DNA from: Patescibacteria group bacterium
Lineage (GTDB): Bacteria > Patescibacteriota > Minisyncoccia > Phycocordibacterales > PALSA-1337
Reading direction: 5' to 3'
Assembly (NCBI GenBank): GCA_018970245.1
Contig: JAGWWT010000001.1
Coordinates: forward strand, 17,548 to 81,547
DNA: 64,000 nt
Each line of letters begins with the position of its first letter. Within the stretch, counting starts at the first letter, position 1. The position numbers were made by a program, and so were the translations under genes. Below, one piece after another: positions 3,544 through 61,712 of the stretch. The notes below the pieces were generated by a model. That model was not told where the DNA came from. It worked only from the letters and a program-made list of their open reading frames with translations, and ran no database searches.

Positions 3544-4761
3544 TCATTTCTTGAAATACTGGTCCTCGATCTTCTTCATGTACTTGGGCAGATCGGAGAG
3601 AGGGACGATGTCCTGAGAATGCGTGTCTGTTCGGCGGACGATGACGGTGCGGTCGACGGCCTCTTTCTTGCCCATGACTATGATATACGGGGTGTGGTAT
3701 TTCTCTATGCTCGATACCTGTGCTCCGAGGCGATCCTTGGCCAGCGAGACATAGAGGGGTATCTTGACCTGCCGCAAAGCCTCTATGACCTGGAGGGAGA
3801 GCAGCTTCGACTCGAGGCCGAGCTGTATGAAGGAGGCGATCGGACGCTTGAGCTTGGTGAGCGGCTTGCGCAAGCCGGACTTGTTCTCCTTGATGAGGAG
3901 CGAGAGGCCGACGCCCTGGATGTCGCGCTTCATGTTCAGGCGCTTGGAAAGCCCGTTGTACCTGGCTCCTACGGCGAGGATGTGTTGGGAGCCCTTCTGG
4001 CTGTCATCGGCGTTGACTATGGAGAAGACTGTCTCGGTGCAGTACTTGCGGTTGCCGATCAGGCCGTTGTTGATCCGGTAGGGGATCTCGAGTGTCTCCA
4101 GGTACTCCAAGATCTCCTCGAGATGGCGGCGGCTGGTCTCGGACAGGAAGTCCATGGCCCGCGGCGCGCCGGCGTTGAGCTCACGGCATGAATCGTCGTG
4201 GCTTGACAGGAGCTCGAATGGATCCGTCTTGAAGAGCTGGCGGCATTCCGGCGTCATGTCGTTTATGTTCTTGCGGTAGTAGGCTGTCAGCTCCTTGACG
4301 AAGCGGACGATCGAATCGTGGTCGCCGATCGAGTTGATCTCGACCATAGTGTTCTCATAGCCCTCGGCGGCGAGCATGGCCCGGCCGGTCTGGATGAGCG
4401 CCGCTTCGGCGATCGGTCCCGAGGCGCCCAGGATCTCGAGGTCGGCATAGCGATGATAGTGGCTGCGCTTGGAGTTGCGGCAGGGATCTTTGTAGTAGAG
4501 CATCACCGGCTGCGGCAGAGCGTGCATGTTCTCGCTATGATAGGCGCGGATGATGGATATCTTCTCCTCGGCATGGAGCGGCAAGCGGCCGTGGCTCTCC
4601 GTCTCGTCATCTATGTAGTCTCCGTCGAGGAGGCCCTTGGCGGCATCGAGGTCTGCTTTGGAGATGGCCGGGCTCTTCATGGGCGCGAATCCGTAATACA
4701 CGGCGATCTCGCCTATCTTGTCCAGGTGCTCGAAGGGGATGAACTTCGGTTGATTGGCCAT
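3544..4761 (-). CDS. hisS: Histidyl-tRNA synthetase
   Basis: 405 aa. Class II aaRS core with HisRS-type motifs and a C-terminal anticodon-binding domain. Confidence 0.8.
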   Translation of the reverse strand: MANQPKFIPFEHLDKIGEIAVYYGFAPMKSPAISKADLDAAKGLLDGDYIDDETESHGRLPLHAEEKISIIRAYHSENMHALPQPVMLYYKDPCRNSKRSHYHRYADLEILGASGPIAEAALIQTGRAMLAAEGYENTMVEINSIGDHDSIVRFVKELTAYYRKNINDMTPECRQLFKTDPFELLSSHDDSCRELNAGAPRAMDFLSETSRRHLEEILEYLETLEIPYRINNGLIGNRKYCTETVFSIVNADDSQKGSQHILAVGARYNGLSKRLNMKRDIQGVGLSLLIKENKSGLRKPLTKLKRPIASFIQLGLESKLLSLQVIEALRQVKIPLYVSLAKDRLGAQVSSIEKYHTPYIIVMGKKEAVDRTVIVRRTDTHSQDIVPLSDLPKYMKKIEDQYFKK

Positions 4762-6110: not shown

Positions 6111-6446
6111 ATGGCGCCAGCAGAAAACAATTTCTTGGCACTGCCGAAGCCGCACGAGCATGTTTCGCGGCTTTTGGTCCTGACCATCATCATGGGCACG
6201 ATCGTGCTCCTTTTGTGGCTGGGGGCGGTGATATGGAGCACCTCGAACGCGCCGCAAGCGTCAGCGCCGGCACCGGTCAAGAGCATGGCAGAACAGATCA
6301 CGGAACAGCTATCCAATGCGCCCGTAGCCGCTGTCCAGCCTCAGACTGTGAAAAACATCACGGCCCAGCTCGACAAGGCTAAAGCAAATCCTCTGACTTC
6401 CAGCCAAAAAGCAGCGATAACCAAACAATTATCAGCTCCTTATTAG
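6111..6446 (+). CDS. Hypothetical small membrane-anchored protein
   Basis: 111 aa with one TM helix (LLVLTIIMGTIVLLLWLGAVIW) and an Ala/Gln-rich tail. Confidence 0.4.
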   Translation: MAPAENNFLALPKPHEHVSRLLVLTIIMGTIVLLLWLGAVIWSTSNAPQASAPAPVKSMAEQITEQLSNAPVAAVQPQTVKNITAQLDKAKANPLTSSQKAAITKQLSAPY

Positions 6447-11191: not shown

Positions 11192-13684
11192 ATGGCCAAG
11201 AAGAATGACAAAAACGCGGCCGAGAATGGCCGCGAAACCGATTCAGGATCCAAGCCGGCCGTGTCCGGCGTTATCGCGCGCTCCATCACGACCGAGATGC
11301 GCGAGTCATACCTCGACTACGCCATGTCGGTCATCACCGCCCGCGCGCTTCCGGATGTCCGCGACGGCTTGAAGCCTGTGCATCGCCGCATCCTTTACGC
11401 CATGCATGAGAAAGGCCTGACCGCCTCCTCCAAGTTCCGCAAGTCGGCAGTCGTCGTCGGCGACGTCCTCGGCAATTACCACCCTCACGGCGATGTCGCC
11501 GTCTATGACACGCTGGTCGGCATGGCCCAGCCTTTCAGGATGCGCTACCAGCTCGTCCAGGGCCAGGGCAACTTCGGGAATATCGATGGCGATCCGGCTG
11601 CCGCTATGCGTTACACAGAGGCTCGCATGTCGCGACTGGCGGCAGAGCTCCTGCGCGATATAGACAAGGACACGGTGGATTTTCGGCCCAACTACGACGG
11701 CACGCGCAAGGAGCCGGTCGTCCTTCCGACGGCAGTCCCGAACATGCTCCTCAACGGCACGCTCGGCATCGCCGTAGGCATGGCCACCAACATCGCGCCG
11801 CACAATCTCAACGAGGTAGTCGATGCGGCCGTGCATCTCATCGACGATCGCGAAGCCACTACCGAGGACCTCCTTCAGCACATAAAAGGCCCTGATTTCC
11901 CGACGGGCGCGGTCATATATGGAGAGAAGGATATCCGTCATGCCTATACGACAGGCCGCGGCCCCATCGTAGTCCGTGGCGAAGCGGAGATCATTGAAGA
12001 CAAGAAAGGCGCATACCAGATCGTCATCACTTCGATCCCGTATCGCGTGAACAAGTCCGAGCTGATCATGAAGATCGCCGACCTCGTGCGCGAGAAGACG
12101 GTCGAGGGCATCAAAGCCCTCCGCGACGAGTCCAAGGACGACATCCGCATCGTCATCGACCTCAAGCAGGGCTCATACCCGGAGAAGATCCTCAATCAGC
12201 TCTACAAGCATACCCAGCTCGAGGACGCTTTCCATGTGAACATGGTGGCGCTCGTGGACGGCGTCCCGCATACGCTGTCTTTGAAGTCCATCCTTGAAGA
12301 GTTCGTGAAGCACCGCATCATCGTCATCCGCCGCCGCACGCAGTTCGACCTGAATGCGGCCGAAGCCCGCGAGCATATCCTTCTCGGCCTCAAAAAGGCC
12401 CTCGACCATATAGATGAGATCATCACGCTCATCCGCGCCTCGAAGGACGTCGCCGAGGCCAAGGCCGGGCTCATGAAGAAGTTCAAATTCACTGACATCC
12501 AGGCCCAGGCCATCCTGGACATGAGGCTGCAGAAGCTGGCCGGCCTCGAGCGCAAGAAAGTCCTGGACGAGCTCAAGGAAGTCCAAGCGCTCATCGAAGA
12601 GCTCAAAGGGATCCTCGGATCGGAGAAGAAAGTCCGCGATATCATAAAGAAAGAGCTCGCAGACATAAAGGCCAAGTACGGCGACGACAGGCGCACCAAG
12701 ATCATCAAGCACGGTGTCAAGGATTTCAACCCGGAAGACCTCATCGCCGACGAGGAGTCCGTCCTGGTCCTCACCAAGGGCGGCTATATCAAGCGCACCG
12801 ACCCGTCCGAATACCGCAAGCAGAAGCGCGGCGGCGTAGGGGTCGTCGATCTCGACACCAAGGAAGAGGATTTCATAACGCATCTCGTATTCGCCACGAC
12901 CCACAACGACCTCTTGTTCTTCACGGACAAGGGCAAAGCCTATCAGATCAAGATGTACGACATACCCGAAGGCAAGCGGGCCACTCGCGGCAAGTCCATC
13001 ATGAACTTCCTCTCGCTGTCAGACGGCGAGCGCGTGACGTCCATCTTGCCCATGCCGAAGACCAAGAAGGAGGCCGAGGGATTGTCGCTCATGATGGTGA
13101 CCAAGGATGGCACCGGCAAGAAGACCTCGGCTGCGCATTTCAAGGACGTCCGCCGCTCAGGCCTCATAGCCATCAGCCTAGGAGAAGGCGACGAGCTCAT
13201 ATCGGCTTCGTTCGTGAGCAAGTTCGATGAGATCCTCATCGCCACGCGCGAGGGCCAGTCGATCCGCTTCAAAGGGTCAGACATCCGCGAGATGGGCCGC
13301 AACGCTGCCGGAGTGAGAGCCATCAAGCTCGGCAAAGGCGATGCCGTCATCTCAGCAGACATAGTCACCAAGGAAGCCAAGAATCCTCGCCTCTTCGTGA
13401 TGGGCGCCAACGGCTTCGGCAAGCAGACCGACCTTTCAGAATACAAGACGCAGAACCGCGGCGGCTCAGGGATCCTCACGATGAATGTGACCTCGAAGAC
13501 AGGCCCTGTCATGGCAGCCCGCGTCGTCACCGATGAAGTAGAGGAGATCGTGGCCATGTCCAAGAAGTCCCAGGTCATCCGCGTCGATCTCAAAGAGATA
13601 CCGACTCTCGGCCGCTCGACCCAGGGCGTCCGGGTCATGAAGCTCCGAGAAGGGGATTCTCTCGCTTCGCTCATCTGCATATAA
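11192..13684 (+). CDS. gyrA: DNA gyrase subunit A
   Basis: 830 aa. Carries the [11 protein letters not shown] active-site Tyr motif, the GyrA N-terminal domain and C-terminal beta-pinwheel repeats. Confidence 0.95.
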
Positions 13685-27370: not shown

Positions 27371-27400
27371 AGATTTAAGATTTAAGAATTAAGATTTAAG
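27371..27400. repeat. Heptamer tandem array (AGATTTAAG/ATTTAAG/AATTAAG)
   Basis: agatttaagatttaagaattaagatttaag, between rpmF and nusB. Confidence 0.8.
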
Positions 27401-27491
27401 GAGCCGGGCAGCAGGCTTAAATCGTAGATCCTAAGTCGTAGATCTTCGCATTAGCACTAGAAAGCCAGCACTAGAAAGCTCTTTCATCGAA

Positions 27492-29472: not shown

Positions 29473-29475
29473 ATA

Positions 29476-29527
29476 TCTCCAATCTCTAATATCTAATCTC
29501 TAATATCTAATCTCTAATCTCCAATCC
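29476..29527. repeat. Heptamer tandem array (reverse complement of ATTAGAG/ATTAGAT units)
   Basis: tctccaatctctaatatctaatctctaatatctaatctctaatctccaatcc, immediately upstream of smc. Confidence 0.85.
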
Positions 29528-39032: not shown

Positions 39033-39473
39033 ATGCTCATCGGAGAACACCGCCATACTATCGATGACAAGAATCGCCTGTCGCTTCCCGCCAAGTTCCG
39101 AAAGGAAATGGGACGCGCAGTTGTGATCACGCCGGGACTCGACTCCTGTCTCTTCGTCTTTTCGGCGAAGGAATGGGAGAAGATCTCCGGACGCTTGTCA
39201 GCGGGAGATTCTTCGATACTGCAGGCGGACAACCGCGGCTTCAACCGCTTCCTCCTCGGAGGGGCCGTTGAAGCTCCGGTTGATGCAGTCGGCCGCATGC
39301 TTCTACCGGAACATCTGCGCGAGCACGCCAGGCTCAAGACGAATGTCGTCTTCCTAGGCGTCGTGGACCGCGCCGAGATCTGGGACGAAGAGACTTGGAG
39401 CGCCTATCGGAAGGGTGTGACGGACAACGCCAACGCCCTCGCCGAGAAGCTAGGCCAGGCGGGCGTGAAGTGA
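39033..39473 (+). CDS. mraZ: Division/cell-wall cluster transcriptional regulator MraZ
   Basis: Start MLIGEHRHTIDDKNRLSLPAKFR, with the duplicated MraZ fold motif (second half GAVEAPVDAVGRMLLPEHLRE). Confidence 0.8.
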   Translation: MLIGEHRHTIDDKNRLSLPAKFRKEMGRAVVITPGLDSCLFVFSAKEWEKISGRLSAGDSSILQADNRGFNRFLLGGAVEAPVDAVGRMLLPEHLREHARLKTNVVFLGVVDRAEIWDEETWSAYRKGVTDNANALAEKLGQAGVK

Positions 39474-39532
39474 GGAGTATGGAGAAAGGAGAAAGGAGTA
39501 AGGAGAAAGGAGTAAGGAGCGACGAGAAAGGA
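39474..39532 (+). repeat. Heptamer array (AAGGAGA/AAGGAGT)n spanning the mraZ-rsmH junction and rsmH N-terminus
   Basis: ggagaaaggagaaaggagtaaggagaaaggagtaaggagcgacgagaaaggag, with SD-like units. Confidence 0.8.
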
Positions 39533-40462
39533 GATTCAGTCCACAAACCAGTACTTTTAAATGAAATCATCGGATATTTGACGGATCTGCCTGAACATCC
39601 GTCCGATATCTCGTATCTCGATGGGACTCTAGGCGGAGCAGGGCATGCTCTCGCCGTCGCTGAGGCCTTGAAGGAGAAAGGCGTGCGCCATCTGACGCTG
39701 GCCGGCTTGGACAGAGATCCGGCTGCCATCGCACGCGCCGCCGTCGCCCTGCAGGGGAAGGCTTCCAAGCTGATCCTTGAGAACGAAGATTTTCGGAACC
39801 TGGATAGGGTCCTCGATAAGCACGGCATGAAGGCCGTCGACCTTATCCTCCTAGATCTAGGCATCTCTTCGGATGAGCTAGAGTCTTCCGGCCGCGGCTT
39901 CACCTTCCAGAAGGACGAACCGCTCCTCATGACTCTTGGCGATCCGGCCCGGTACCAATTCACGGCCAAAGACATCGTGAACGGCTGGGAAGAGGAGGTG
40001 CTCGCGAACATCATTTTCGGATATGCAGAAGAAAAGTTCGCCAGGCGCATAGCCAGAGCCATCGTCATCTACCGGTCCAAGAAGAAGATAGAGACGTCGA
40101 TGGAGCTGGCCGAGATCGTCAAGAATGCCGTTCCTCCGTTCTACCGTCGCGGGAAGATCCACCCGGCCACCAAGACCTTCCAGGCCTTGCGCATCGCCGT
40201 CAACGACGAGCTTGAAGCGCTCCGTGAAGGCCTCGCCAAGGGATTCGACAGGCTGGCGCCTGGCGGCCGGATGGCAGTGATCTCCTTCCACAGCCTCGAA
40301 GACAGGATAGTGAAAGGATTCTTCAAAGACAAAGGGAAGCTGGGAGCGGACGTCCTCACCAAGAAGCCGGTCACCGCCGCTCAAGAAGAGATCTCGTCCA
40401 ACCCACGATCCCGCAGCGCGAAATTGCGAGTTATTTCTAAGAACAAAAACCAAAATAAATGA
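39479..40462 (+). CDS. rsmH: 16S rRNA (cytosine1402-N4)-methyltransferase RsmH (MraW)
   Basis: HKPVLLNEIIGYL and DGTLGGAGHA motifs. The only available in-frame start is the ATG at 39479, inside the heptamer array, so the N-terminus MEKGERSKEKGVRSDEKGD is repeat-encoded. Confidence 0.75.
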   Translation: MEKGERSKEKGVRSDEKGDSVHKPVLLNEIIGYLTDLPEHPSDISYLDGTLGGAGHALAVAEALKEKGVRHLTLAGLDRDPAAIARAAVALQGKASKLILENEDFRNLDRVLDKHGMKAVDLILLDLGISSDELESSGRGFTFQKDEPLLMTLGDPARYQFTAKDIVNGWEEEVLANIIFGYAEEKFARRIARAIVIYRSKKKIETSMELAEIVKNAVPPFYRRGKIHPATKTFQALRIAVNDELEALREGLAKGFDRLAPGGRMAVISFHSLEDRIVKGFFKDKGKLGADVLTKKPVTAAQEEISSNPRSRSAKLRVISKNKNQNK

Positions 40463-42535: not shown

Positions 42536-42545
42536 TAAAATTGCA

Positions 42546-42573
42546 GAATTAGGAATTAAGAATTAAGATTTAT
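42546..42573. repeat. Heptamer tandem array (AATTAGG/AATTAAG)
   Basis: gaattaggaattaagaattaagatttat, ending 2 nt before the 4HB start codon. Confidence 0.8.
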
Positions 42574-42575
42574 GG

Positions 42576-42977
42576 ATGGGTCTACTAGACGCTCCAAGAA
42601 GCAAGATCAGATCATTCACAGACCTCAAATCCTGGAAGGAAGGCCATGGATTAGTAGTCTTGACCTATAGGATAACGGCAAAATTCCCGCGTTCTGAGCT
42701 TTATTCTCTCACTGATCAGATGCGTAGAGCTGCTTCTTCAGTAACCGCAAATATAGCGGAAGGGTTCGGGAGGCGAAGCTATAAAGAAAAGATCCAATTC
42801 TACTATCATTCACAGGGTTCTTTGACTGAATTGAAGGATCATATTTTGACAGCTAAGGATATCGGATATTTGAATGAGGATGATTTAAGATCCTTGGCAG
42901 AATCGGCCAATATGACTCACAGATTGCTTCAAGGACTCATAACGAAATCCAAGTCCTTCTTAAATCTTAAATCCTGA
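42576..42977 (+). CDS. Four-helix-bundle protein (23S rRNA-IVS protein family, TIGR02436; DGR Avd-like fold)
   Basis: 133 aa with the hallmark SVTANIAEGFGRRSYKEKIQFYYHSQGSLTELKDHILTAKDIGYL. Paralogous to 58549..58935. Inserted between ftsI and murF. Confidence 0.75.
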   Translation: MGLLDAPRSKIRSFTDLKSWKEGHGLVVLTYRITAKFPRSELYSLTDQMRRAASSVTANIAEGFGRRSYKEKIQFYYHSQGSLTELKDHILTAKDIGYLNEDDLRSLAESANMTHRLLQGLITKSKSFLNLKS

Positions 42978-42990
42978 TTCTTAATTCCTG
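42957..42990. repeat. Heptamer tandem array overlapping the 3' end of the 4HB gene
   Basis: ttcttaaatcttaaatcctgattcttaattcctg encodes the C-terminal FLNLKS* and continues past the stop. Confidence 0.8.
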
Positions 42991-48128: not shown

Positions 48129-49127
48129 ATGAACAGAAATGAGGCAAAAAACCGCTGTAATGGCCCGCAAACAAAGACGTCTTACGGATTTATGAGAGCC
48201 CGCACCGCATCAGTCCTAGGGAGCGTGATCCTGGGGGCGGCTTTATTCGCTTTTCTGCCGGCTGGCAGAGCCGATGCCCAGATCTTCCCGTTCCCATTCG
48301 GAGGAGGTTCGCACTCCAGCCCTCTCGGCTTCTTGCCAAATCCAGGCCGCCTGCCGAATCCTCTCAGCATATTGCCGAATCCATTCGGATCGCCGATAGG
48401 CCACGATTACGGCTACGGCAACAACCACGGCTATAACAACAATTACAACTACAATTATAACTACAACTATAATTCCAACCGCGGACCTTATCCGCCTCCG
48501 GCATATCACCCGCCAGAGCCGCGCCCAAATCCGCAACCATATCCGTATCCGATCCCACACCCCCAGCCGAATCCTCGCCCATATCCATATCCGTCGCCGT
48601 ATCCTTCGCCGGTGCCATATCCGGTGCCATATCCTGTCCCGCAGCCGGTCTACTACCCACAACCTCAACCTGTGGTCCAGCCGATCTATTATCCTCAGCC
48701 TCAGCCTGTGGTCCAGCCCATAGTCTATCAACAGCCGGTCTATGTGCCCCCGCCGCAGCCAGTCTACGTACAACAGCCGCAGCCGATCGTCATAAGCCAG
48801 CCGCAACCCGTCTACGTCCAGCAGCAGCCGGTCATCGTGAGCCAGCCGTATCAGTCATACCCCCAGTCGCTCTCCATATCCTGCTATCCGGATTCGACGA
48901 CCGTTTACAACAACCGATTCGTGACATGGACAGCCGATGTCACCGGCGGCGTCACGCCCTACGCTTATTCTTGGAGCGGGACAGAGTACACCGGCAATAT
49001 GAGCTCGAGCCAGATATACCAGTACTACCAGTATCTCGGATACAAGACTATGAATGTGACCGTCCGCTCTGCCGACGGCCAGACGGCATTCGCCAGCTGC
49101 GGCTCGGTGAACGTGATAGATCCATAG
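48129..49127 (+). CDS. Secreted low-complexity protein (NY and PQPV repeats) with a conserved C-terminal module
   Basis: Signal peptide; (NY)n; P/Q/V/Y-rich repeats. The C-terminal TVRSADGQTAFASCGSVNV is shared with the 51472 gene. Confidence 0.55.
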   Translation: MNRNEAKNRCNGPQTKTSYGFMRARTASVLGSVILGAALFAFLPAGRADAQIFPFPFGGGSHSSPLGFLPNPGRLPNPLSILPNPFGSPIGHDYGYGNNHGYNNNYNYNYNYNYNSNRGPYPPPAYHPPEPRPNPQPYPYPIPHPQPNPRPYPYPSPYPSPVPYPVPYPVPQPVYYPQPQPVVQPIYYPQPQPVVQPIVYQQPVYVPPPQPVYVQQPQPIVISQPQPVYVQQQPVIVSQPYQSYPQSLSISCYPDSTTVYNNRFVTWTADVTGGVTPYAYSWSGTEYTGNMSSSQIYQYYQYLGYKTMNVTVRSADGQTAFASCGSVNVIDP

Positions 49128-49148
49128 TCCCGTGCTATCATCTTCCGC

Positions 49149-51374
49149 ATGGCTGTACCCGATAGCTTTTTGAAGCCCTACGATCCTGGGGCTACCGAAG
49201 ACCGCATATACTCGCTCTGGGAGAAGAGCGGCTTTTTCGATCCTGACGATCTGCCTGAAAGGAACAAGAATGGCGAGCCTTTTTCCATAGTCCTGCCCCC
49301 GCCTAACGTGACAGGCACCCTCCATATGGGCCATGCCGCCATGCTCGCTATCGAGGACATAATGATCAGATACAAGCGGATGCGCGGATACAGGACATTG
49401 TGGCTTCCTGGCACGGATCACGCAGCCATCGCCACGCAATCCAAGGTCGAGAAAGAGATAGTCAAGAAGGAGGGCAAGAATCGCCACGACCTAGGACGAG
49501 AGGAGTTCCTGAAGCGCGTTGGCGAGTTCGCCAAGAATAGCCACGACACGATAGTCAATCAGGTCCGCAAGATGGGCGCTTCAGTCGACTGGTCGCGGGA
49601 AGCATTCACTTTGGATGAGAAGCGCTCCTTCGCTGTCCGGACCGCCTTCAAGCGCATGTACGATATGGGCCTCATTTACCGCGGCAACCGCATCGTCAAT
49701 TGGGATCCGAAGGGGCAGACCACTATCTCCGACGATGAGATCGTCTATAAGGAAGAGAAGACGAAGTTCTATTATTTCAAATACGGCCCGTTCGTCATCG
49801 GCACAGCCAGGCCTGAGACGAAGTTCGGCGACAAGTACGTCGTCATGCATCCGGACGATGCGCGCTACGCCGCTTACAAGCATGGCCAGAAGATCGACCT
49901 TGAATGGATAAACGGCCCTATCACGGCGACGGTCATCAAGGATGCTTCTATCGACATGGAGTTCGGGACCGGCGTCATGACGATCACGCCTTGGCACAGC
50001 GCTGTGGATTTCGACATAGCCGAACGGCATAAGCTCGACAAAGAGCAGATCATCGATACATTCGGCAAGCTCCTGCCCGTAGCGGGCGAGTTCGCCGGCA
50101 TGAAGATCGCCGAAGCCAGGCCCAAGATCGTGGAGAAGCTCCGCGCTAAAGGCCTCGTAGAAAAGGAAGAAGACTACGTCCACAACATCGCTACCGCTGA
50201 GCGCACTGGCGGCCTAGTGGAGCCTCAGATCATGAAGCAATGGTTCGTCGGGGTGAATACGAGGTTCGAGATCCCGGGCGCCAAAAAAGGCTCGAGCAGC
50301 AAGACTCTCAAAGAGATTATGAAGGAAGCTGTCGAGTCCGGAAAGATAAAGATCATTCCTGACAGATTCGAGAAGATCTATTATCACTGGATAGACAATC
50401 TCCGCGATTGGTGCATCTCGCGCCAGATCTGGTATGGGCACAGAGTGCCGGTGTGGTACAGGAGGGCAGAGATTGGAGATGAGAGATTAGATATTAGAGA
50501 TGAGAGATCAGAGACTAGAGAGGAGGTGTATGTGGGCGTGGAGGCGCCGGAAGGGGAAGGTTGGAGACAAGATGAAGACACTCTCGATACCTGGTTCTCG
50601 TCGGGCCTCTGGACATTCTCGACCCTAGGCTGGCCGGAAGAGACCGAAGACCTCAAGCTCTACCACCCGACCGACGTCCTCGAGACGGGCTATGACATCC
50701 TCTTTTTCTGGGTGGCCAGGATGATCCTCATGACCGGATGCCTTCTCGGTGATGTACCGTTCAAGACAGTCTATCTCCATGGCCTCGTCCGCGATGGGAA
50801 GGGCCGCAAGATGTCCAAATCGCTGGACAACATCATCGATCCTCTGGACATGATCAAGAAGTACGGCGGCGACGCCACGCGCCTGTCGCTCATCATCGGC
50901 ACCGGACCAGGGAACGATCTCAAGCTCTCCGAGGACAAAGTCCGCGGCTACAAGAATTTCGCTAATAAGCTCTGGAACATCACTCGTTTCGTCCTGGAAT
51001 CAGCCGGCGGCGAGGCCATCGACAAAGCCTTCGAAGGCTACACGGACGCAGACGCCAAGCTCCGCAAGGCCAGGCGTGCGTTCCTGGAAGAGATCACCCG
51101 CGAAATGGAGGAGTTCAAATTCTACCTGGTAGGCGAAAAGCTATATCACTATGCCTGGCATGAATTCGCGGACAAGATCCTAGAGGATAGCAAGAAGATA
51201 TTCAGGGAGGGGGATGAAAAGGCCCAGAGGTCACGCCGCCAGCTTTTGCTCCATACGCTGGACGATATCTTGCGGGCTCTGCATCCATTCATGCCATTCG
51301 TGACTGAAGAGATCTGGAGGGCTATGGATCGGGATCAGGGCATGCTCATGGTCCAGGAATGGCCGATCGCCTAA
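49149..51374 (+). CDS. valS: Valyl-tRNA synthetase (short form) with a repeat-encoded insertion
   Basis: 741 aa with PPPNVTGTLHMGHA (HIGH), KMSKS and an editing domain. Lacks the long C-terminal coiled coil. Confidence 0.9.
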   Translation: MAVPDSFLKPYDPGATEDRIYSLWEKSGFFDPDDLPERNKNGEPFSIVLPPPNVTGTLHMGHAAMLAIEDIMIRYKRMRGYRTLWLPGTDHAAIATQSKVEKEIVKKEGKNRHDLGREEFLKRVGEFAKNSHDTIVNQVRKMGASVDWSREAFTLDEKRSFAVRTAFKRMYDMGLIYRGNRIVNWDPKGQTTISDDEIVYKEEKTKFYYFKYGPFVIGTARPETKFGDKYVVMHPDDARYAAYKHGQKIDLEWINGPITATVIKDASIDMEFGTGVMTITPWHSAVDFDIAERHKLDKEQIIDTFGKLLPVAGEFAGMKIAEARPKIVEKLRAKGLVEKEEDYVHNIATAERTGGLVEPQIMKQWFVGVNTRFEIPGAKKGSSSKTLKEIMKEAVESGKIKIIPDRFEKIYYHWIDNLRDWCISRQIWYGHRVPVWYRRAEIGDERLDIRDERSETREEVYVGVEAPEGEGWRQDEDTLDTWFSSGLWTFSTLGWPEETEDLKLYHPTDVLETGYDILFFWVARMILMTGCLLGDVPFKTVYLHGLVRDGKGRKMSKSLDNIIDPLDMIKKYGGDATRLSLIIGTGPGNDLKLSEDKVRGYKNFANKLWNITRFVLESAGGEAIDKAFEGYTDADAKLRKARRAFLEEITREMEEFKFYLVGEKLYHYAWHEFADKILEDSKKIFREGDEKAQRSRRQLLLHTLDDILRALHPFMPFVTEEIWRAMDRDQGMLMVQEWPIA
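50476..50517 (+). repeat. Six degenerate heptamers (42 nt) in-frame inside valS
   Basis: gatgaga gattaga tattaga gatgaga gatcaga gactaga encodes DERLDIRDERSETR, located between the WYGHR(V)P(V)WY motif and RQDEDTLDTWFSS. Confidence 0.75.
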
Positions 51375-53934: not shown

Positions 53935-54999
53935 ATGGAAAAGATGCTTATCATCCTCGTCGCTCTGGCCATAGCCGCCAACATCGTCATGCTTTTCGCA
54001 TTCTTGCGCCGCCGGGAAGCGCCAAAGGCTGACGCGAGCGCTTCTGATGGCTACAAGCTGATAATGGAACAGGTGAATGACCTGCGCCGGACCATGGACG
54101 ACCGGATGATCAGGAATACCCGCGATATGCACGATGCTCTCCACAGGCAGTTCAGCGAGTCACAGAAGCTCATCAAAGATATAACGAGCGAGCTTGTCCA
54201 GGTCAAAGAAACAGGCAAACAGGTGGTCTCGTTCGCCGATCAGCTACAGAATCTACAGGATATCCTCAAGAATCCGAAGCATAGGGGGATCCTCGGTGAA
54301 TATTATCTGGAGACTCTGTTGAAGAACGTCCTGCCGCCGGGACAGTACCAGATGCAGTATCCATTCGCTAATGGCGAGATAGTGGACGCGGCGATATTCG
54401 TGAAGGATAAGATAATACCCGTGGATTCCAAGTTCTCTCTTGAGAACTACAACAAACTGGCCGAGGCTCGTGATCCGGGCGAGAAGGAGCGCCTCGAAAA
54501 AGCCTTCGTCAACGACTTGAAGATCCGTATCCAGGAGACCTCGAAGTATATCCGGCCTATGGAAGGGACGATGGAGTTCGCATTCATGTTCATCCCGCAC
54601 GAGGCGATATATTACGACCTTCTCGTGAATAAGATCGGAGCGGTCACAGATGACACGGATAATCTCATCCAGCGCGCTGCGAGCAAATACAAGGTGATCA
54701 TCGTCTCGCCGACCTCATTCCTGGCTTATCTACAGACTGTCCTCCAGGGATTGAAGGCTCTGCAGATCGAGGAGACGGCCAAGGACATAATCAAGCGCGT
54801 CTCTGAGCTGGGCACGCACCTGAAGAAGTACGAGGATTACCACTCGAAGCTCGGGTCATCATTGTCCACTGTCGTGAATCACTACAATAATGCTGGCAAG
54901 GAGCTCAAAAAAGTGGATAAGGATATCCTGAGGATAACCGAATCTTCGCCTGGCCTAGAATCGCCGATGATCGATAGGCCAGAATTGGTGGGGGAATAA
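53935..54999 (+). CDS. rmuC: DNA recombination protein RmuC
   Basis: Start MEKMLIILVALAI: N-terminal TM, coiled coil, C-terminal RmuC nuclease-like domain. Confidence 0.7.
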   Translation: MEKMLIILVALAIAANIVMLFAFLRRREAPKADASASDGYKLIMEQVNDLRRTMDDRMIRNTRDMHDALHRQFSESQKLIKDITSELVQVKETGKQVVSFADQLQNLQDILKNPKHRGILGEYYLETLLKNVLPPGQYQMQYPFANGEIVDAAIFVKDKIIPVDSKFSLENYNKLAEARDPGEKERLEKAFVNDLKIRIQETSKYIRPMEGTMEFAFMFIPHEAIYYDLLVNKIGAVTDDTDNLIQRAASKYKVIIVSPTSFLAYLQTVLQGLKALQIEETAKDIIKRVSELGTHLKKYEDYHSKLGSSLSTVVNHYNNAGKELKKVDKDILRITESSPGLESPMIDRPELVGE

Positions 55000-55261: not shown

Positions 55262-55825
55262 ATGGATTCATACAAGAACAAGATCATATATTTCTACAGG
55301 CGCACGAAGCGCATGCCCAGCTATGCGGAGATAATGTCTCTGCTCGGCTTCAAGTCCAAGAATGCCGTCTACAAATTGGTGAACAAGCTCGTGAGCGAGG
55401 GTGCTTTGGATAAAGATTCGCAGGGACGGCTAGTACCGAACCGCCTTTTCGGAGAGGTGCCTGTCCTCGGATTGGTCGAGGCGGGATTTCCCACCGCTGC
55501 CGAGGAGGAGCTCGTAGATACTATGAGCCTCGACGAATATATGATCGAGAACAAAGAGGCCACCTATATGCTCGAGGTAAAGGGCGATTCTATGATCGAG
55601 GCCGGCATCCAGGAAGGCGACCTTGTCATCGCTGAAAGAGGCAAGGAGCCCAAGCCTGGCGATATCGTCATTGCCGAGGTCGACGGCGGATGGACGATGA
55701 AATATTTCCGTAAGACCGGCAACCAAGTGTGGCTGGAGCCTGCGAACAAGGCGTACAAGCCTATCTATCCCGAAGCCGATCTCAAGATCGCCGCCGTCGT
55801 GAAGGGGGTGATCAGGAAATATTAA
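55262..55825 (+). CDS. lexA: SOS repressor LexA
   Basis: 187 aa from MDSYKNKIIYFYRR: wHTH (YAEIMSLLGFKSKNAVYKLV), S24 peptidase with VKGDSMIEAGI (catalytic Ser) and the Lys dyad partner. Confidence 0.85.
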   Translation: MDSYKNKIIYFYRRTKRMPSYAEIMSLLGFKSKNAVYKLVNKLVSEGALDKDSQGRLVPNRLFGEVPVLGLVEAGFPTAAEEELVDTMSLDEYMIENKEATYMLEVKGDSMIEAGIQEGDLVIAERGKEPKPGDIVIAEVDGGWTMKYFRKTGNQVWLEPANKAYKPIYPEADLKIAAVVKGVIRKY

Positions 55826-55835
55826 ATATCAAAGA

Positions 55836-55857
55836 TTAAAAATTAAAAACAACAACC
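55836..55857. repeat. Short heptamer-like array (GATTAAA/AATTAAA)
   Basis: aagattaaaaattaaaaacaac, immediately upstream of the VOC gene start. Confidence 0.5.
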
Positions 55858-56226
55858 ATGAAAATCAGAGGCGTTGACTATTTCTTCTATAACGTGAGCG
55901 ATATCAAGAAGTCTCTGGCGTTCTATCGCGACGTCATGGGATTGGAAGTGACCGATGAGCAGGAGAAGTGGGCGGAATTCGATTGTGGGAACCTGACTCT
56001 CGGCATAGGCGTATTCGGAGCCGATCCCAAGGCTGCAAAGAACGGCGCGGCTGTGGCTTTATCTGTCGATAATGTGGAAGATGCGGTGGCTGAATTGAAG
56101 GGTAAAAAAGTGAAGATCGTCACGGAACCTATGGATTTCCCGGATATGTGCGAGATGGCTATCATAGCCGATCCCGATGGCAACCAGATCATCCTCCATC
56201 ATCGGAAGGATGGAAGCGTTGGATGA
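55858..56226 (+). CDS. VOC-family (glyoxalase/bleomycin-resistance/dioxygenase) protein
   Basis: 122 aa; VDYFFYNVSDIKKSLAFYRDVMGLEV matches the VOC beta-alpha-beta-beta-beta module. Confidence 0.6.
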   Translation: MKIRGVDYFFYNVSDIKKSLAFYRDVMGLEVTDEQEKWAEFDCGNLTLGIGVFGADPKAAKNGAAVALSVDNVEDAVAELKGKKVKIVTEPMDFPDMCEMAIIADPDGNQIILHHRKDGSVG

Positions 56227-57527
56227 TCCTAACCCACAGATCGTTCCCGCGTGCGATACTCCACGTAGATGGCGACAGCTTTTTCGCCTCGTGCGAGGTC
56301 GCCAAGGATCCGAGCCTGAAGGGCAAATGCGTGGTCACTGGCAAGGAGCGTGGCATAGCGAGCTCCATGAGCTACGAAGCCAAAGCCCGTGGCGTTACGC
56401 GGGCGATGCGGCTGTCCGAGATCAAAAAGCTCATCCCAGACGTGATAATTTTGCCGTCGGACTATGAGACGTACAGCCTGTATTCGCAGCGCATGTATGA
56501 GATCGTACGGCGCTATACGGACGCTGTCGAGGAGTATTCGATCGACGAATGCTTCGCGGATCTCACGGGGATGCGCCGGCCCAACAACATGTCGTACGAG
56601 GCTATGGCCGAGAAGATAAAACGCGAATTGGACGGCGAGCTCGGCATGACGTTCTCGGTTGGTTTGGCTTTGAATAAAGTCACGGCCAAGGTGGCCAGCA
56701 AATGGCGGAAGCCGTCCGGATTGACGATCATTCCTGGCTACCATCTTCATCTTTATTTGGCAAAGACCCCGATAGAGAAGATCTGGGGCATCGGTCCGCA
56801 GACTTCTTCATATTTGATAAAGAAAGGCGTGAAGACCGCCTTGGATTTCGCCATGAAGGAAAAAGAATGGGTCAAAGCGCTTTTTTCCAAGCCGTTCCAG
56901 GAGATCCATTCGGAACTGAATGGCGATTTTGTGTATCCTTTGACCGTCGGTGAGAAGCACGACTACGCTTCCATATCTAAAACGCGGACATTCACGCCAC
57001 CCTCGAAGGACAGGGGATTCGTCTATTCGCAGCTATCCAAGAATATCGAGAATGCCTGCATAAAGCTGCGCCGGCACAACCTCTTCGCCAAGGCCTTCGC
57101 TTTCTATCTGAAGACACAGGACTTCAGGTACAGCGGATTGGACTTCAAACTGAGCCAAGCTGTCTCCGTGCCCCAGGAGATATTGAAGATAGTCAGCGAG
57201 CGATTCGACGATGTGTACAGACCAGGCTTCGAATACAGGGCTACCGGCGTGGTCCTCATGGAATTGAGCCATTCTGATGCCCGTACGCTCGACCTATTCG
57301 GCCGATCTGGCGCGATAGACAGGATAAAGCGCGTCTATGAGGGCGTAGATGCCGCCTGCGCCAAGTTCGGCAAGCATGCCGTATTCCTGGGGTCTTCATT
57401 CAGGGCCATGAATGAGCCTGCGCATAGGGGCGATAGGGCTGATTCGTCAGAAAGGCGCAAGAATCTCGTCAAAGGAGAGAACGAAAGGCAGAGAATAGGG
57501 TTGCCATTCCTGGGAGTTGTCAAATAG
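56223..57527 (+). CDS. dinB: DNA polymerase IV (Y-family, DinB)
   Basis: Start MILTHRSFPRAILHVDGDSFFAS (overlaps the VOC stop in ATGA). Y-family palm/fingers motifs and a little-finger domain. Confidence 0.85.
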   Translation: MILTHRSFPRAILHVDGDSFFASCEVAKDPSLKGKCVVTGKERGIASSMSYEAKARGVTRAMRLSEIKKLIPDVIILPSDYETYSLYSQRMYEIVRRYTDAVEEYSIDECFADLTGMRRPNNMSYEAMAEKIKRELDGELGMTFSVGLALNKVTAKVASKWRKPSGLTIIPGYHLHLYLAKTPIEKIWGIGPQTSSYLIKKGVKTALDFAMKEKEWVKALFSKPFQEIHSELNGDFVYPLTVGEKHDYASISKTRTFTPPSKDRGFVYSQLSKNIENACIKLRRHNLFAKAFAFYLKTQDFRYSGLDFKLSQAVSVPQEILKIVSERFDDVYRPGFEYRATGVVLMELSHSDARTLDLFGRSGAIDRIKRVYEGVDAACAKFGKHAVFLGSSFRAMNEPAHRGDRADSSERRKNLVKGENERQRIGLPFLGVVK

Positions 57528-57875: not shown

Positions 57876-57882
57876 GGGAGGG

Positions 57883-57922
57883 TAGATATTAGAGATTAGA
57901 GACTAGAGATTAGAGACTAGAG
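57883..57922. repeat. Heptamer tandem array (ATTAGAG/ACTAGAG) overlapping the recR 3' end
   Basis: gatattagagattagagactagagattagagactagag. The recR stop and last codons lie inside it. Confidence 0.85.
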
Positions 57923-58518: not shown

Positions 58519-58544
58519 GGGAGTAGAGCGGAGAGTAGAGAGCA

Positions 58545-58575
58545 GAGATTAGAGATTAGAGATTAGATTAGAGAG
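58545..58575. repeat. Heptamer tandem array (AGATTAG) overlapping the 4HB gene 3' end
   Basis: agagattagagattagagattagattagagag. Its reverse complement encodes the C-terminal ...LSNLISNL*. Confidence 0.85.
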
Positions 58576-58935
58576 GGAATTGGTTTTTGTGATCAGGCCC
58601 TGCAGCAGGCGATGGGCGCTGCTGATCCGATCACTGGCCTCATTGTAGTCTTTTTCTGAGATGTATGAAATATCCCTCGAAAGGATGAGCTGGTTCTCGA
58701 GCTCTGACATCGAGCCGCGAGCTTGGTAATAGAAATGCGCTTTGTCCTTGTATGTCCTGCGTCCGAAGCCCTCGGCGATATTGGACGTGATCGATACGGC
58801 TGACCTTCTCATCTGGCCTGCAAGGCCAAAGAGCTCTTCCTTCGGGAATTTCCTCGTCAAATCATACACGCCCATTACAAGGCGGTGTGAGACCTGCCAA
58901 GCCTGCAAATCTGTGAATTTGACGATGCCACCCAT
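58549..58935 (-). CDS. Four-helix-bundle protein (23S rRNA-IVS protein family, TIGR02436; Avd-like fold), paralog 2
   Basis: 128 aa: FTDLQAWQVSHRLVMGVYDLTRKFPKEE...RRSAVSITSNIAEGFGRRTYKDKAHFYYQARGSMSELENQLILSRDISYI. Confidence 0.8.
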   Translation of the reverse strand: MGGIVKFTDLQAWQVSHRLVMGVYDLTRKFPKEELFGLAGQMRRSAVSITSNIAEGFGRRTYKDKAHFYYQARGSMSELENQLILSRDISYISEKDYNEASDRISSAHRLLQGLITKTNSLSNLISNL

Positions 58936-58939
58936 ATAT

Positions 58940-58970
58940 GCCCTCTAATATCTAATCTCTAATCTCTGCC
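58940..58970. repeat. Heptamer tandem array upstream of the 4HB gene
   Basis: ccctctaatatctaatctctaatctctgccc. Confidence 0.8.
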
Positions 58971-60908: not shown

Positions 60909-61712
60909 ATGAGAACAAAGATCATATCCGCCGTCGCTATGGCCGCCATAGCATCTGCCTTTTCTATCGCGCCGGTATTCGCCCAGGCTCCAGCCGCCAG
61001 GAAGAACACCTCTGGAGTCACTGAGGCGCAGCGCATGGCTGTCCTCGGTGCCCACGGAGACAAGGAGATAGACGTCCGAGTCCAGAGCCTGAACAAGCTC
61101 ATCGCGCGCATACAGGGGCTGCGCAACATATCAGACGCCCAGAAGTCATCGATCGAGAATACGCTCCAGTCCATCGTCACCAATCTCCAGACGCTCAAGA
61201 CACAGGTCGACGCCGCCACGTCCACAGCCGATCTCAGGTCCGACGACAAGGCTGTCATTGATAACTATCGCGTCTACGCCTTGGTCATGCCGCAGCTCAA
61301 CATCATCGCCGCATCTGACAGGATAGTCACGATATCGCAGATGCTAGGATCGGTATCCCAGAAGCTCCAATCCAGGCTCTCAAGCGCCTCGGCGATCTCT
61401 AACCTTTCAGCTCTGCAGTCCGATTTGTCTGACATAGCCGCCAAAGCAGCAGATGCGGCTTCCCAGGCCCAGGCTGCCGTCTCTGAAGTCTCTGCTCTGG
61501 TGCCGGATCAGGGCGACAAGACCAAGATGGCCTCCAATACCGCTGCTCTCAAAGACGCCCGCTCCAAGATCAGGGCCGCCCAGCAGGACCTCGTCGCCGC
61601 CAGGAAGGATGCTGAAGCCATCATCCAGGCGCTGGTCAAATGGGACAAATCCGTCATGAGCTCGTCTGCGGCAGCAAGCTCGACCGAAGCCGCTAGCTCT
61701 TCGCAGCAATAG
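60909..61712 (+). CDS. Hypothetical secreted coiled-coil protein
   Basis: Start MRTKIISAVAMAAIASAFSIAPVFAQA (signal peptide), followed by an alanine-rich heptad sequence. Confidence 0.45.
   Translation: MRTKIISAVAMAAIASAFSIAPVFAQAPAARKNTSGVTEAQRMAVLGAHGDKEIDVRVQSLNKLIARIQGLRNISDAQKSSIENTLQSIVTNLQTLKTQVDAATSTADLRSDDKAVIDNYRVYALVMPQLNIIAASDRIVTISQMLGSVSQKLQSRLSSASAISNLSALQSDLSDIAAKAADAASQAQAAVSEVSALVPDQGDKTKMASNTAALKDARSKIRAAQQDLVAARKDAEAIIQALVKWDKSVMSSSAAASSTEAASSSQQ

Follow-up and report, generated by a model that had tools for sequence, protein, structure and literature searches.

The valyl-tRNA synthetase (ValRS) gene valS, in a stretch of 64,000 nt from a Patescibacteria group bacterium (contig JAGWWT010000001.1 of assembly GCA_018970245.1; this whole stretch is called the window, and positions given without a locus name refer to it), carries within its reading frame a tandem array of a 7-nt unit, TAGAGAT with close variants. 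The same unit forms arrays in intergenic DNA elsewhere in the window. We consider it probable that the valS segment is an in-frame ectopic copy of the genome's own TAGAGAT array, kept without stop codons in the permissive tip of the CP3 hairpin of the enzyme.

The heptamer-periodic DNA is located between the codons for WYGHRVPVWY and RQDEDTLDTWFSS. Its core, as defined by repeat detection, a table of units and codon phases and a shuffle test, comprises eight units in the NAGAGAT register (50467-50522, forward strand), which read in order CAGAGAT, TGGAGAT, GAGAGAT, TAGATAT, TAGAGAT, GAGAGAT, CAGAGAC and TAGAGAG. Tandem Repeats Finder reports the array at period 7 (50468-50521, 7.7 copies, 78% matches, score 66, consensus AGAGATT) and again at period 21 (50467-50525, 2.8 copies, 81% matches, score 83), and only the 21-nt super-period is compatible with the reading frame. 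At period 7 the array scores 23.5. When the codons of valS were shuffled 5000 times, the score never exceeded 13 (0/5000 reach that of the array), and only the periods 7, 14 and 21 stand out. The segment is thus a head-to-tail array of a short unit beyond chance expectation, as is typical of simple sequence repeats and variable number tandem repeats. An earlier note on this DNA had quoted six heptamers at 50476-50517 (gatgaga, gattaga, tattaga, gatgaga, gatcaga and gactaga, encoding the peptide DERLDIRDERSETR). The sequence indeed reads as quoted and the 42 nt are present, their true coordinates being 50478-50519 on the forward strand, 2 nt further on; the heptamer copies are real as well, although there are eight of them and not six.

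The gene that harbours the array (valS, 49149-51374, forward strand) encodes a 741-aa ValRS of the short Patescibacteria type. This assignment is based on the open reading frame (ORF), on Pfam (tRNA-synt_1, E = 2.4e-135, plus Anticodon_1), on 100% identity to an NCBI valine--tRNA ligase annotated to 'Patescibacteria group bacterium' (P0001) and on an alignment to the Thermus thermophilus enzyme of structure 1GAX that covers residues 9-739 (E = 1.6e-174). A HIGH-type motif (TLHMGH) and the KMSKS motif are visible in the translation and the frame is intact through the insert. With a catalytic core, both motifs and an anticodon-binding domain, the product belongs to the ValRS family of class Ia aminoacyl-tRNA synthetases.

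The unit of the valS array is shared with four other arrays in the window, in agreement with what the earlier note had proposed. A search with the degenerate three-unit pattern AGAGATNAGAGATNAGAGAT, allowing at most 3 mismatches, gave 23 matches in the 64 kb versus 0.11 in shuffled sequence; 22 of these fall within five arrays, and the remaining one is an isolated match with 3 mismatches at 61395. The TAGAGAT family therefore consists of five arrays, four of them intergenic, and has the character of a dispersed heptanucleotide family. The array at 29475-29526 (reverse strand), between a terminator-like hairpin and the start of smc, is the closest match to the one in valS. The array at 57883-57922 (forward strand) is found between rplU and recR, the array at 58531-58567 (forward strand) at the 3' end of a gene of family PF05635, also upstream of recR, and the array at 58943-58967 (reverse strand) immediately upstream of that same PF05635 gene, inverted relative to the former. 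A comparison with the sister strain represented by locus L165 showed a difference of exactly one 7-nt unit in the rplU-recR array (at 57882), a difference of one unit in the array at the 3' end of the PF05635 gene (58547), and 77 extra nt in L165 at the array upstream of it (58938). These one-unit and 77-nt differences between strains indicate that the family is actively changing.

The relation between the valS array and the intergenic ones extends beyond the unit itself. In local alignments the valS segment fits best to the smc-upstream array in reverse complement, with agreement at 33/35 bases over GATTGGAGATgAGAGATTAGATATTAGAGATgAGA, and the two arrays have the same order of unit variants (TGGAGAT, TAGAGAT, TAGATAT, TAGAGAT). 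In addition, the leader GGGCAGAGATT at the left edge of the valS array is identical to that of the array upstream of the PF05635 gene (58943-58967). Both mismatches over GATTGGAGATgAGAGATTAGATATTAGAGATgAGA are T-to-G changes in units at codon phase 0, and both remove a stop codon. In fact, every frame of an array made of TAGAGAT alone contains TAG, and the two valS units that are read at codon phase 0 (50481 and 50502) start with G instead of T, so that TAG is not read. Such a G start is seen in 2/2 phase-0 units against 1/28 of the other units of the family (hypergeometric P ~0.007), whose first bases are T (22), C (5) and G (1). The concentration of G starts in the phase-0 units is a clear mark of selection at the level of translation, acting on a sequence of intergenic type.

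The insertion is a strain-level polymorphism among near-identical strains. The 90% cluster of the ValRS protein of the window includes the proteins P0121 and P0122. The latter (MDE1966647.1, from L165) has 723 aa and is ~99% identical to the ValRS of the window, yet lacks exactly 18 residues and reads WYK-GEEIYVGIESPTGDGWR at the site. Over 16 kb of DNA the window and L165 share 98-99.6% identity, and in the loop they differ by an indel of 54 nt, or 18 codons (50475-50528, forward strand; the gap could equally be placed a few bases away). The insert had been put at 42 nt, 14 codons and six units; the comparison with L165 corrects this to 54 nt, 18 codons and 7.7 units. That it is specific to a lineage was a sound expectation, and the insert is even specific to strains: it is absent from L165, and the loop has 17-18 aa in most of the 120 closest homologs. 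Since the sister strain does without it, the 18-aa loop must be dispensable. P0121, in contrast, carries the insert, and its locus (L166, assembly GCA_028866085.1) has an array identical to that of the window and aligns with no gaps over 9 kb. The valS array thus varies between the strains only by presence or absence of the 54 nt.

The indel is located in a divergent patch (50441-50615, forward strand) in which ~33 single-nucleotide polymorphisms (SNPs) relative to L165 are crowded into ~175 nt, whereas 600 nt of control sequence outside the patch are identical between the two. Such crowding between identical flanks points to short-patch recombination of one of the alleles with a divergent valS. 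The identity of the patch to the outgroup L161 is 0.83 for the window and 0.78 for L165, which mildly favours L165 as the recombinant, judged from the sequences. Elsewhere, the SNPs between the window and L165 are also strongly clustered (48500-49500, 54000-54500 and 55500-57500, the last with 98 SNPs over a dinB-like gene), while long stretches have none at all, which indicates that short-patch recombination has produced mosaics in the population.

Metagenome-assembled genomes are known to suffer from assembly errors at repeats, and the array lies in a recombination-like patch. One could therefore think of a repeat that was collapsed or mis-joined into valS, or of a chimeric contig. We regard such an artefact as hardly credible, considering that two independent assemblies, that of the window and GCA_028866085.1, have an identical array and align without gaps over 9 kb, that the frame is intact with stop-avoiding substitutions exactly where they are needed, and that analogous arrays occur in many independent metagenomes.

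Taken as an ectopic copy, the array would have arisen by gene conversion or a template switch at a short stretch of homology, for example GGG(C/A)AGAGATT, and so by copying and not by growth from nothing. After its arrival it might have grown in steps of 21 nt, and the 21-nt sub-periodicity may reflect such later growth by three units. In-frame stops would have been removed or excluded by selection, and the resulting charged and probably disordered loop of 18 aa (the RAEIGDERLDIRDERSETRE region) would be neutral or nearly so for aminoacylation. Short-patch homologous recombination would then have shuffled presence and absence among the strains. In a wider sense, Patescibacteria may produce genome-specific heptamer arrays at a high rate, and these arrays would survive in intergenic DNA and at those positions in genes that are permissive and free of stops.

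The main competing explanation, and the one put forward in the earlier note, is the expansion of a microsatellite in situ. A native heptamer in the K-G-E-E-I-Y codons would have been doubled and then lengthened by replication slippage, and only lengths that preserved the frame would have survived. The allele of L165 reads AAA GGG GAA GAG ATT (GGGGAAGAGATT) at the site and thus has a G run and one perfect unit, made by the K-G-E-E-I codons. This native GAAGAGATT, with its perfect AGAGATT, could on sequence grounds have acted either as microhomology for ectopic copying or as the seed for slippage. Slippage evidently operates, as the intergenic arrays change by single units between strains, and the 21-nt sub-period (2.8 copies, 81% matches) fits growth in steps of three units. 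Moreover, the unit GAAATCC in the valS loop of the relative L088 resembles the native E-I-Y codons GAAATCT. On the other hand, a single 7-nt copy cannot slip, the total of 54 nt is not a multiple of 21, and the common order of variant units together with the leader GGGCAGAGATT points to descent shared with the intergenic arrays. Furthermore, the valS unit of the relative L001, AATTACG, is unrelated to the flanking codons and yet occurs at three other gene positions of the same contig. The latter observation rules out the native E-E-I codons as a general seed of such arrays; such seeding may still apply to the genome of the window. Growth of the array in situ thus has less support than an origin from an intergenic array that already existed, by copying or by homogenisation, and we consider it unlikely. 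The associated claim that insertions are tolerated only in multiples of three heptamers does not hold either, as the lengths in the window and its relatives are multiples of 3 nt (~27-63), made of partial units plus flanks, and not multiples of 21.

Several considerations weigh against an ectopic copy. No direct observation of copying supports it, and among the alleles compared there was no direct empty-site progenitor of that in the window. The sister strain is different over the whole patch of 175 nt, so that gain by import and loss by replacement both have to be considered, and the comparison with L161 is not decisive between them. The native GGGGAAGAGATT of L165 also fits local slippage from a seed. 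In addition, a raw TAGAGAT copy would hold an in-frame TAG and be lethal, which implies that the T-to-G variants were already present at insertion or that the array grew from a seed without stops. Finally, the neutrality of the loop for aminoacylation is inferred only, and the AlphaFold model is mediocre.

The proximity of two of the arrays to a PF05635 gene brings in another explanation. Genes of this family, that of the 23S rRNA-intervening-sequence proteins, have inverted heptamer arrays on both sides in all three cases found, two in the window and one in locus L019, and each cassette has a unit of its own (AGAATTA at 42545-42987 and TAGAGAT at 58531-58967 in the window; GTATTCC at 14002-14337 in L019). 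The gene of the TAGAGAT cassette occupies 58549-58935 on the reverse strand. In these cassettes the array on the upstream side extends to the start codon, and that on the downstream side encodes the C-terminal tail. From their sequences they look like inserted units, the transcripts of which would form long stems; the syntenic locus L164 lacks the one that lies between a penicillin-binding protein gene and murF.

The valS array might accordingly be a remnant of a mobile cassette, either a terminal inverted arm of a PF05635 cassette or a derivative similar to a miniature inverted-repeat transposable element (MITE). The bracketing of all three genes by inverted arrays with cassette-specific units, the missing cassette in L164 and the identity of the left edge of the valS array to the array at 58943-58967 would be in line with this. 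However, there are three PF05635 genes for ~70 arrays in 2.5 Mb, most arrays are unlinked to cassettes, and the arrays vary by single units, as simple repeats do. The valS segment itself is a single direct array of 54 nt: an inverted partner array and an ORF of its own were looked for in the segment and neither was found, and at its junctions no clear target-site duplication was found. A hairpin or MITE-like structure of the RNA or DNA was considered and rejected (minimum free energy -2.9 kcal/mol, z = +1.5, no inverted arms). A scan of viral contigs for the exact 27-mer gave five matches, all of them unrelated. An origin from a cassette therefore seems improbable to us.

Within the enzyme, the insert aligns with the Cys-rich Zn-knuckle segment of 1GAX (WYCEDCQ...CEACG, residues ~417-455), and its location between WYGHRxPxWY and QDEDTLDTWFSS is that of the CP3 subdomain, where the residues are inserted at the tip of the beta-hairpin. 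In the AlphaFold model, which is of moderate confidence (mean pLDDT 70), the insert is located between the strands 435-439 and 458-462, with a pLDDT <50 for residues 441-456. The alignment and the low-pLDDT loop bear out the expectation of a surface hairpin after the editing/CP region, and an in-frame insert of 18 aa at a hairpin tip is compatible with the fold. Among IleRSs, CP3 topology and zinc content are known to vary (PMC7191050). The zinc knuckle of IleRS and ValRS occupies the same structural position as the insert in the window; nevertheless, the loop of the window, RRAEIGDERLDIRDERSETREEVYVGVEAPEGEGWR, is devoid of Cys and thus has no four-cysteine CxxC...CxxC motif. A Cys-rich knuckle is present in 38/40 relatives from outside the candidate phyla radiation (CPR), a control taken from among the matches listed in a contig scan with the alignment query and consisting mostly of distant Firmicutes-type valS genes, whereas the Paceibacteria have a minimal hairpin of 17-18 aa that has been re-expanded by repeats. 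The E. coli enzyme, against which the extra length had originally been gauged, is for this reason a poor comparator, as non-CPR bacteria have a Zn knuckle of 25-26 aa at the loop.

Among the 120 closest ValRS homologs (67-79% identity) the loop mostly has 17-18 aa and is of the type KGEEIYVGVEAPKGEGWK; the closest of them (79% identity) reads RDTEIFVG. At least 5 extra aa are found at this loop in 29/120, far above any other internal site. The 73 distinct Paceibacteria-like loops comprise 43 that are short, 26 that are expanded without Cys and 4 that are Zn-like. The hairpin has also received other types of sequence. In L037 it contains a complete histidine-phosphatase domain (His_Phos_1, PF00300, E = 6.5e-32; 11297-11893), and in P0112 an insert of 85-103 aa for which Pfam gave no match. 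Moreover, short non-tandem elements of ~24-27 nt recur at the loop in different lineages, where they encode peptides such as RSTxLTAG, PSDSRG and PKADQPGAG: GTTCGACNNNGCTCACGGCAGGC in L091, L096, L100 and L104, GGTACCCCGAGCGATAGTCGAGGGGTT in L100 and L131, and CCAAGGCCGACCAGCCTGGGGCTGGC in L112 and L133. These elements, GTTCGACNNNGCTCACGGCAGGC for example, resemble small dispersed repeats.

Heptamer arrays at the ValRS loop are by no means limited to the window. They were found in at least 11 relatives within the fetched CPR loci (L001-L037 and L081-L168), with different units that sometimes match other arrays of the same genome: AATTACG in L001, AACAATT in L032, GAAATCC in L036 and L088, AAAGTCA in L089, AGGGACG in L101, AAAACTC in L103, AAGCAGC in L128, GAATCAA in L141, AAGATCA in L164 and AGGGAGA/AGGAAGC in L168. 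The CP3 loop of ValRS is thus, as far as the sequences tell, hit repeatedly by different heptamer arrays across relatives. Distant homologs that share the insert of the window with non-repetitive codons, which would have made the repeat a coincidence, were not found; the distant inserts are different and are themselves heptamer arrays.

Other genes are affected as well. In L001 the unit AATTACG (peptide ITNYELR) occurs in frame at four sites in three genes within 10 kb, namely in valS, in tsaD and twice in a murD-like gene (256-286, 1285-1327, 4274-4306 and 6127-6157), which amounts to in-frame insertion into conserved genes at sites compatible with the fold. In-frame heptamer arrays are also present in tsaD of L112, L121, L130 and L132 and in leuS of L167 (21516-21553), and some of the affected genes contain several. 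Within ValRS, period-7 arrays encode part of the conserved helix before LHPFMPFVTEE (L112 7560-7594, L157 2504-2531, L037 12571-12599 and L030 3419-3451), as in RRYTLYAILNTSLRLLHPF, the length being unchanged with respect to QLLLHTLDDILRALHPF of the window. The helix arrays seem to replace structured sequence rather than to add a loop.

The 7-nt period predominates in these loci. Paceibacteria-like loci (1.24 Mb) contain 56 distinct arrays of period 7, against 8 of period 6, 5 of period 12 and 0-1 for each other period from 4 to 15. In non-CPR loci (0.72 Mb) only two period-7 arrays were found; the density of such arrays is ~14-fold higher in Paceibacteria-like DNA. Most period-7 arrays in the CPR loci have ~4.3-4.6 copies. 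Considering all CPR loci, the units differ by at most one base in 45% of the array pairs within a locus and in 5.5% of the pairs between loci; from this comparison of units, the unit families are genome-specific.

Both in-frame repeat insertions and bacterial heptamer repeats are already known. The Rickettsia palindromic elements (RPEs) are selfish repeats that insert into conserved genes without breaking the frame (Ogata et al. 2000; see the review PMC10969869). The likeness to the arrays described here is considerable: a dispersed, genome-specific family that occurs in intergenic DNA and in frame in unrelated essential genes, at positions compatible with the fold, where it adds a peptide. 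The differences are in the structure, as RPEs are palindromic, MITE-like units of ~100-150 bp that encode a conserved peptide, whereas the insert of the window consists of 7-nt units in a tandem array of 54 nt, without a hairpin or the target-site duplication of such elements; its unit is translated in each of the three frames and varies by genome. The valS insert is thus RPE-like in its behaviour and, lacking hairpin and MITE features, not in its structure.

Heptanucleotide repeats have been described as the short tandemly repeated repetitive (STRR) sequences of cyanobacteria, as TAACTGA in Beggiatoaceae (PMC4679880) and as GGGAATC/GGGGAYT in Xanthomonas and Nostoc (PMC4692102). They likewise form short, dispersed tandem arrays, typically of ~4 copies, which are mostly intergenic and near gene ends, with an occasional overlap with an ORF. 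The arrays of the Patescibacteria, in contrast, are found deep inside essential enzymes (valS, tsaD, the murD-like gene and leuS), and the same structural loop is hit recurrently across lineages by many different units. The elements of ~24 nt (GTTCGACNNNGCTCACGGCAGGC) that other lineages have at the valS loop recall the small dispersed repeats of Nostoc, while the insert of the window is a plain heptamer array. The Nostoc repeats (Elhai et al. 2008, Genome Res) are reportedly shorter than 30 nt, associated with heptamer arrays and present inside conserved genes.

The tandem repeats of Borgs, finally, create amino-acid repeats and disordered regions (PMC9879509). They resemble the present arrays in that they are fast-evolving, recently formed and add probably disordered protein segments without breaking the frame. 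In Borgs, the length of every intragenic unit is a multiple of three, and each locus has a unit of its own (PMC9879509), whereas here the unit has 7 nt and is not divisible by three, three units give a repeat of 7 aa, and the unit is also found in intergenic arrays. The Borg repeats have been argued to create functional disordered regions (PMC9879509), and in the same vein the charged, DER-rich loop of the window could be an adaptive feature, selected for instance for the binding of tRNA or of a partner, with the DNA periodicity being secondary. The insert is indeed in frame with its stops removed, and the loop has been expanded in many lineages by hydrophilic, charged peptides. Nevertheless, a near-identical strain does without the insert, the inserts of different lineages have nothing in common beyond being what the repeat of each genome encodes, the period is 7 nt and not 3, and the DNA matches non-coding arrays. 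Adaptive origin of the loop is therefore quite improbable in our view.

In full-text literature searches we found no description of heptamer arrays that invade essential genes of Patescibacteria, nor any account of the CP3 hairpin of ValRS being hit repeatedly, and nothing specific on heptamer repeats came up for Patescibacteria, Parcubacteria or CPR. The valS insert provides a concrete and datable case of non-coding repeat DNA joining an essential enzyme, with two assemblies that have it and a third, ~99% identical, that does not. Selection is visible in it at the resolution of a single base, TAG having become GAG only where the frame would read a stop. The case is not a one-off, as heptamer arrays are the dominant tandem repeat in the Patescibacteria loci examined and have appeared independently in the ValRS hairpin of many lineages. 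If general, the process bears on how loops and disordered segments are gained in streamlined genomes and on the odd insertions in CPR proteins, as well as on the mechanism that favours 7-nt units, a question that has stood since the excess of heptamers in bacteria was first noted. We suggest, tentatively and with more doubt than conviction, that Patescibacteria possess a dedicated, heptamer-specific process of repeat making or copying, by templated copying or by a tiny mobile element that is possibly linked to PF05635, and that this process is a main source of new protein segments. It would then spread arrays through the intergenic DNA and the essential genes of reduced genomes, and the same sites (the ValRS CP3 hairpin, loops of TsaD and the conserved ValRS helix) would be hit again and again.

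The window contains further repeats in other genomic contexts. An AGGAGAA heptamer array of 8.9 copies is located at 39473-39534, between mraZ and rsmH. There is no start codon for rsmH near the conserved SVHKPVLL, and the only in-frame ATG, at 39481, would give the protein an array-encoded N-terminal extension, MEKGERSKEKGVRSDEKGD; in the syntenic locus L164 the array is absent and rsmH starts 5 nt after mraZ. At 27371-27479 the L32 gene is followed by an AGATTTA heptamer array and then, just before nusB, by two 14-nt direct repeats (27418-27444 and 27453-27479). Directly upstream of valS, at 48129-49127, a gene for a Tyr/Pro/Gln-rich low-complexity protein of 332 aa contains many overlapping tandem repeats, with periods of 6, 12, 24, 36, 45 and 48.

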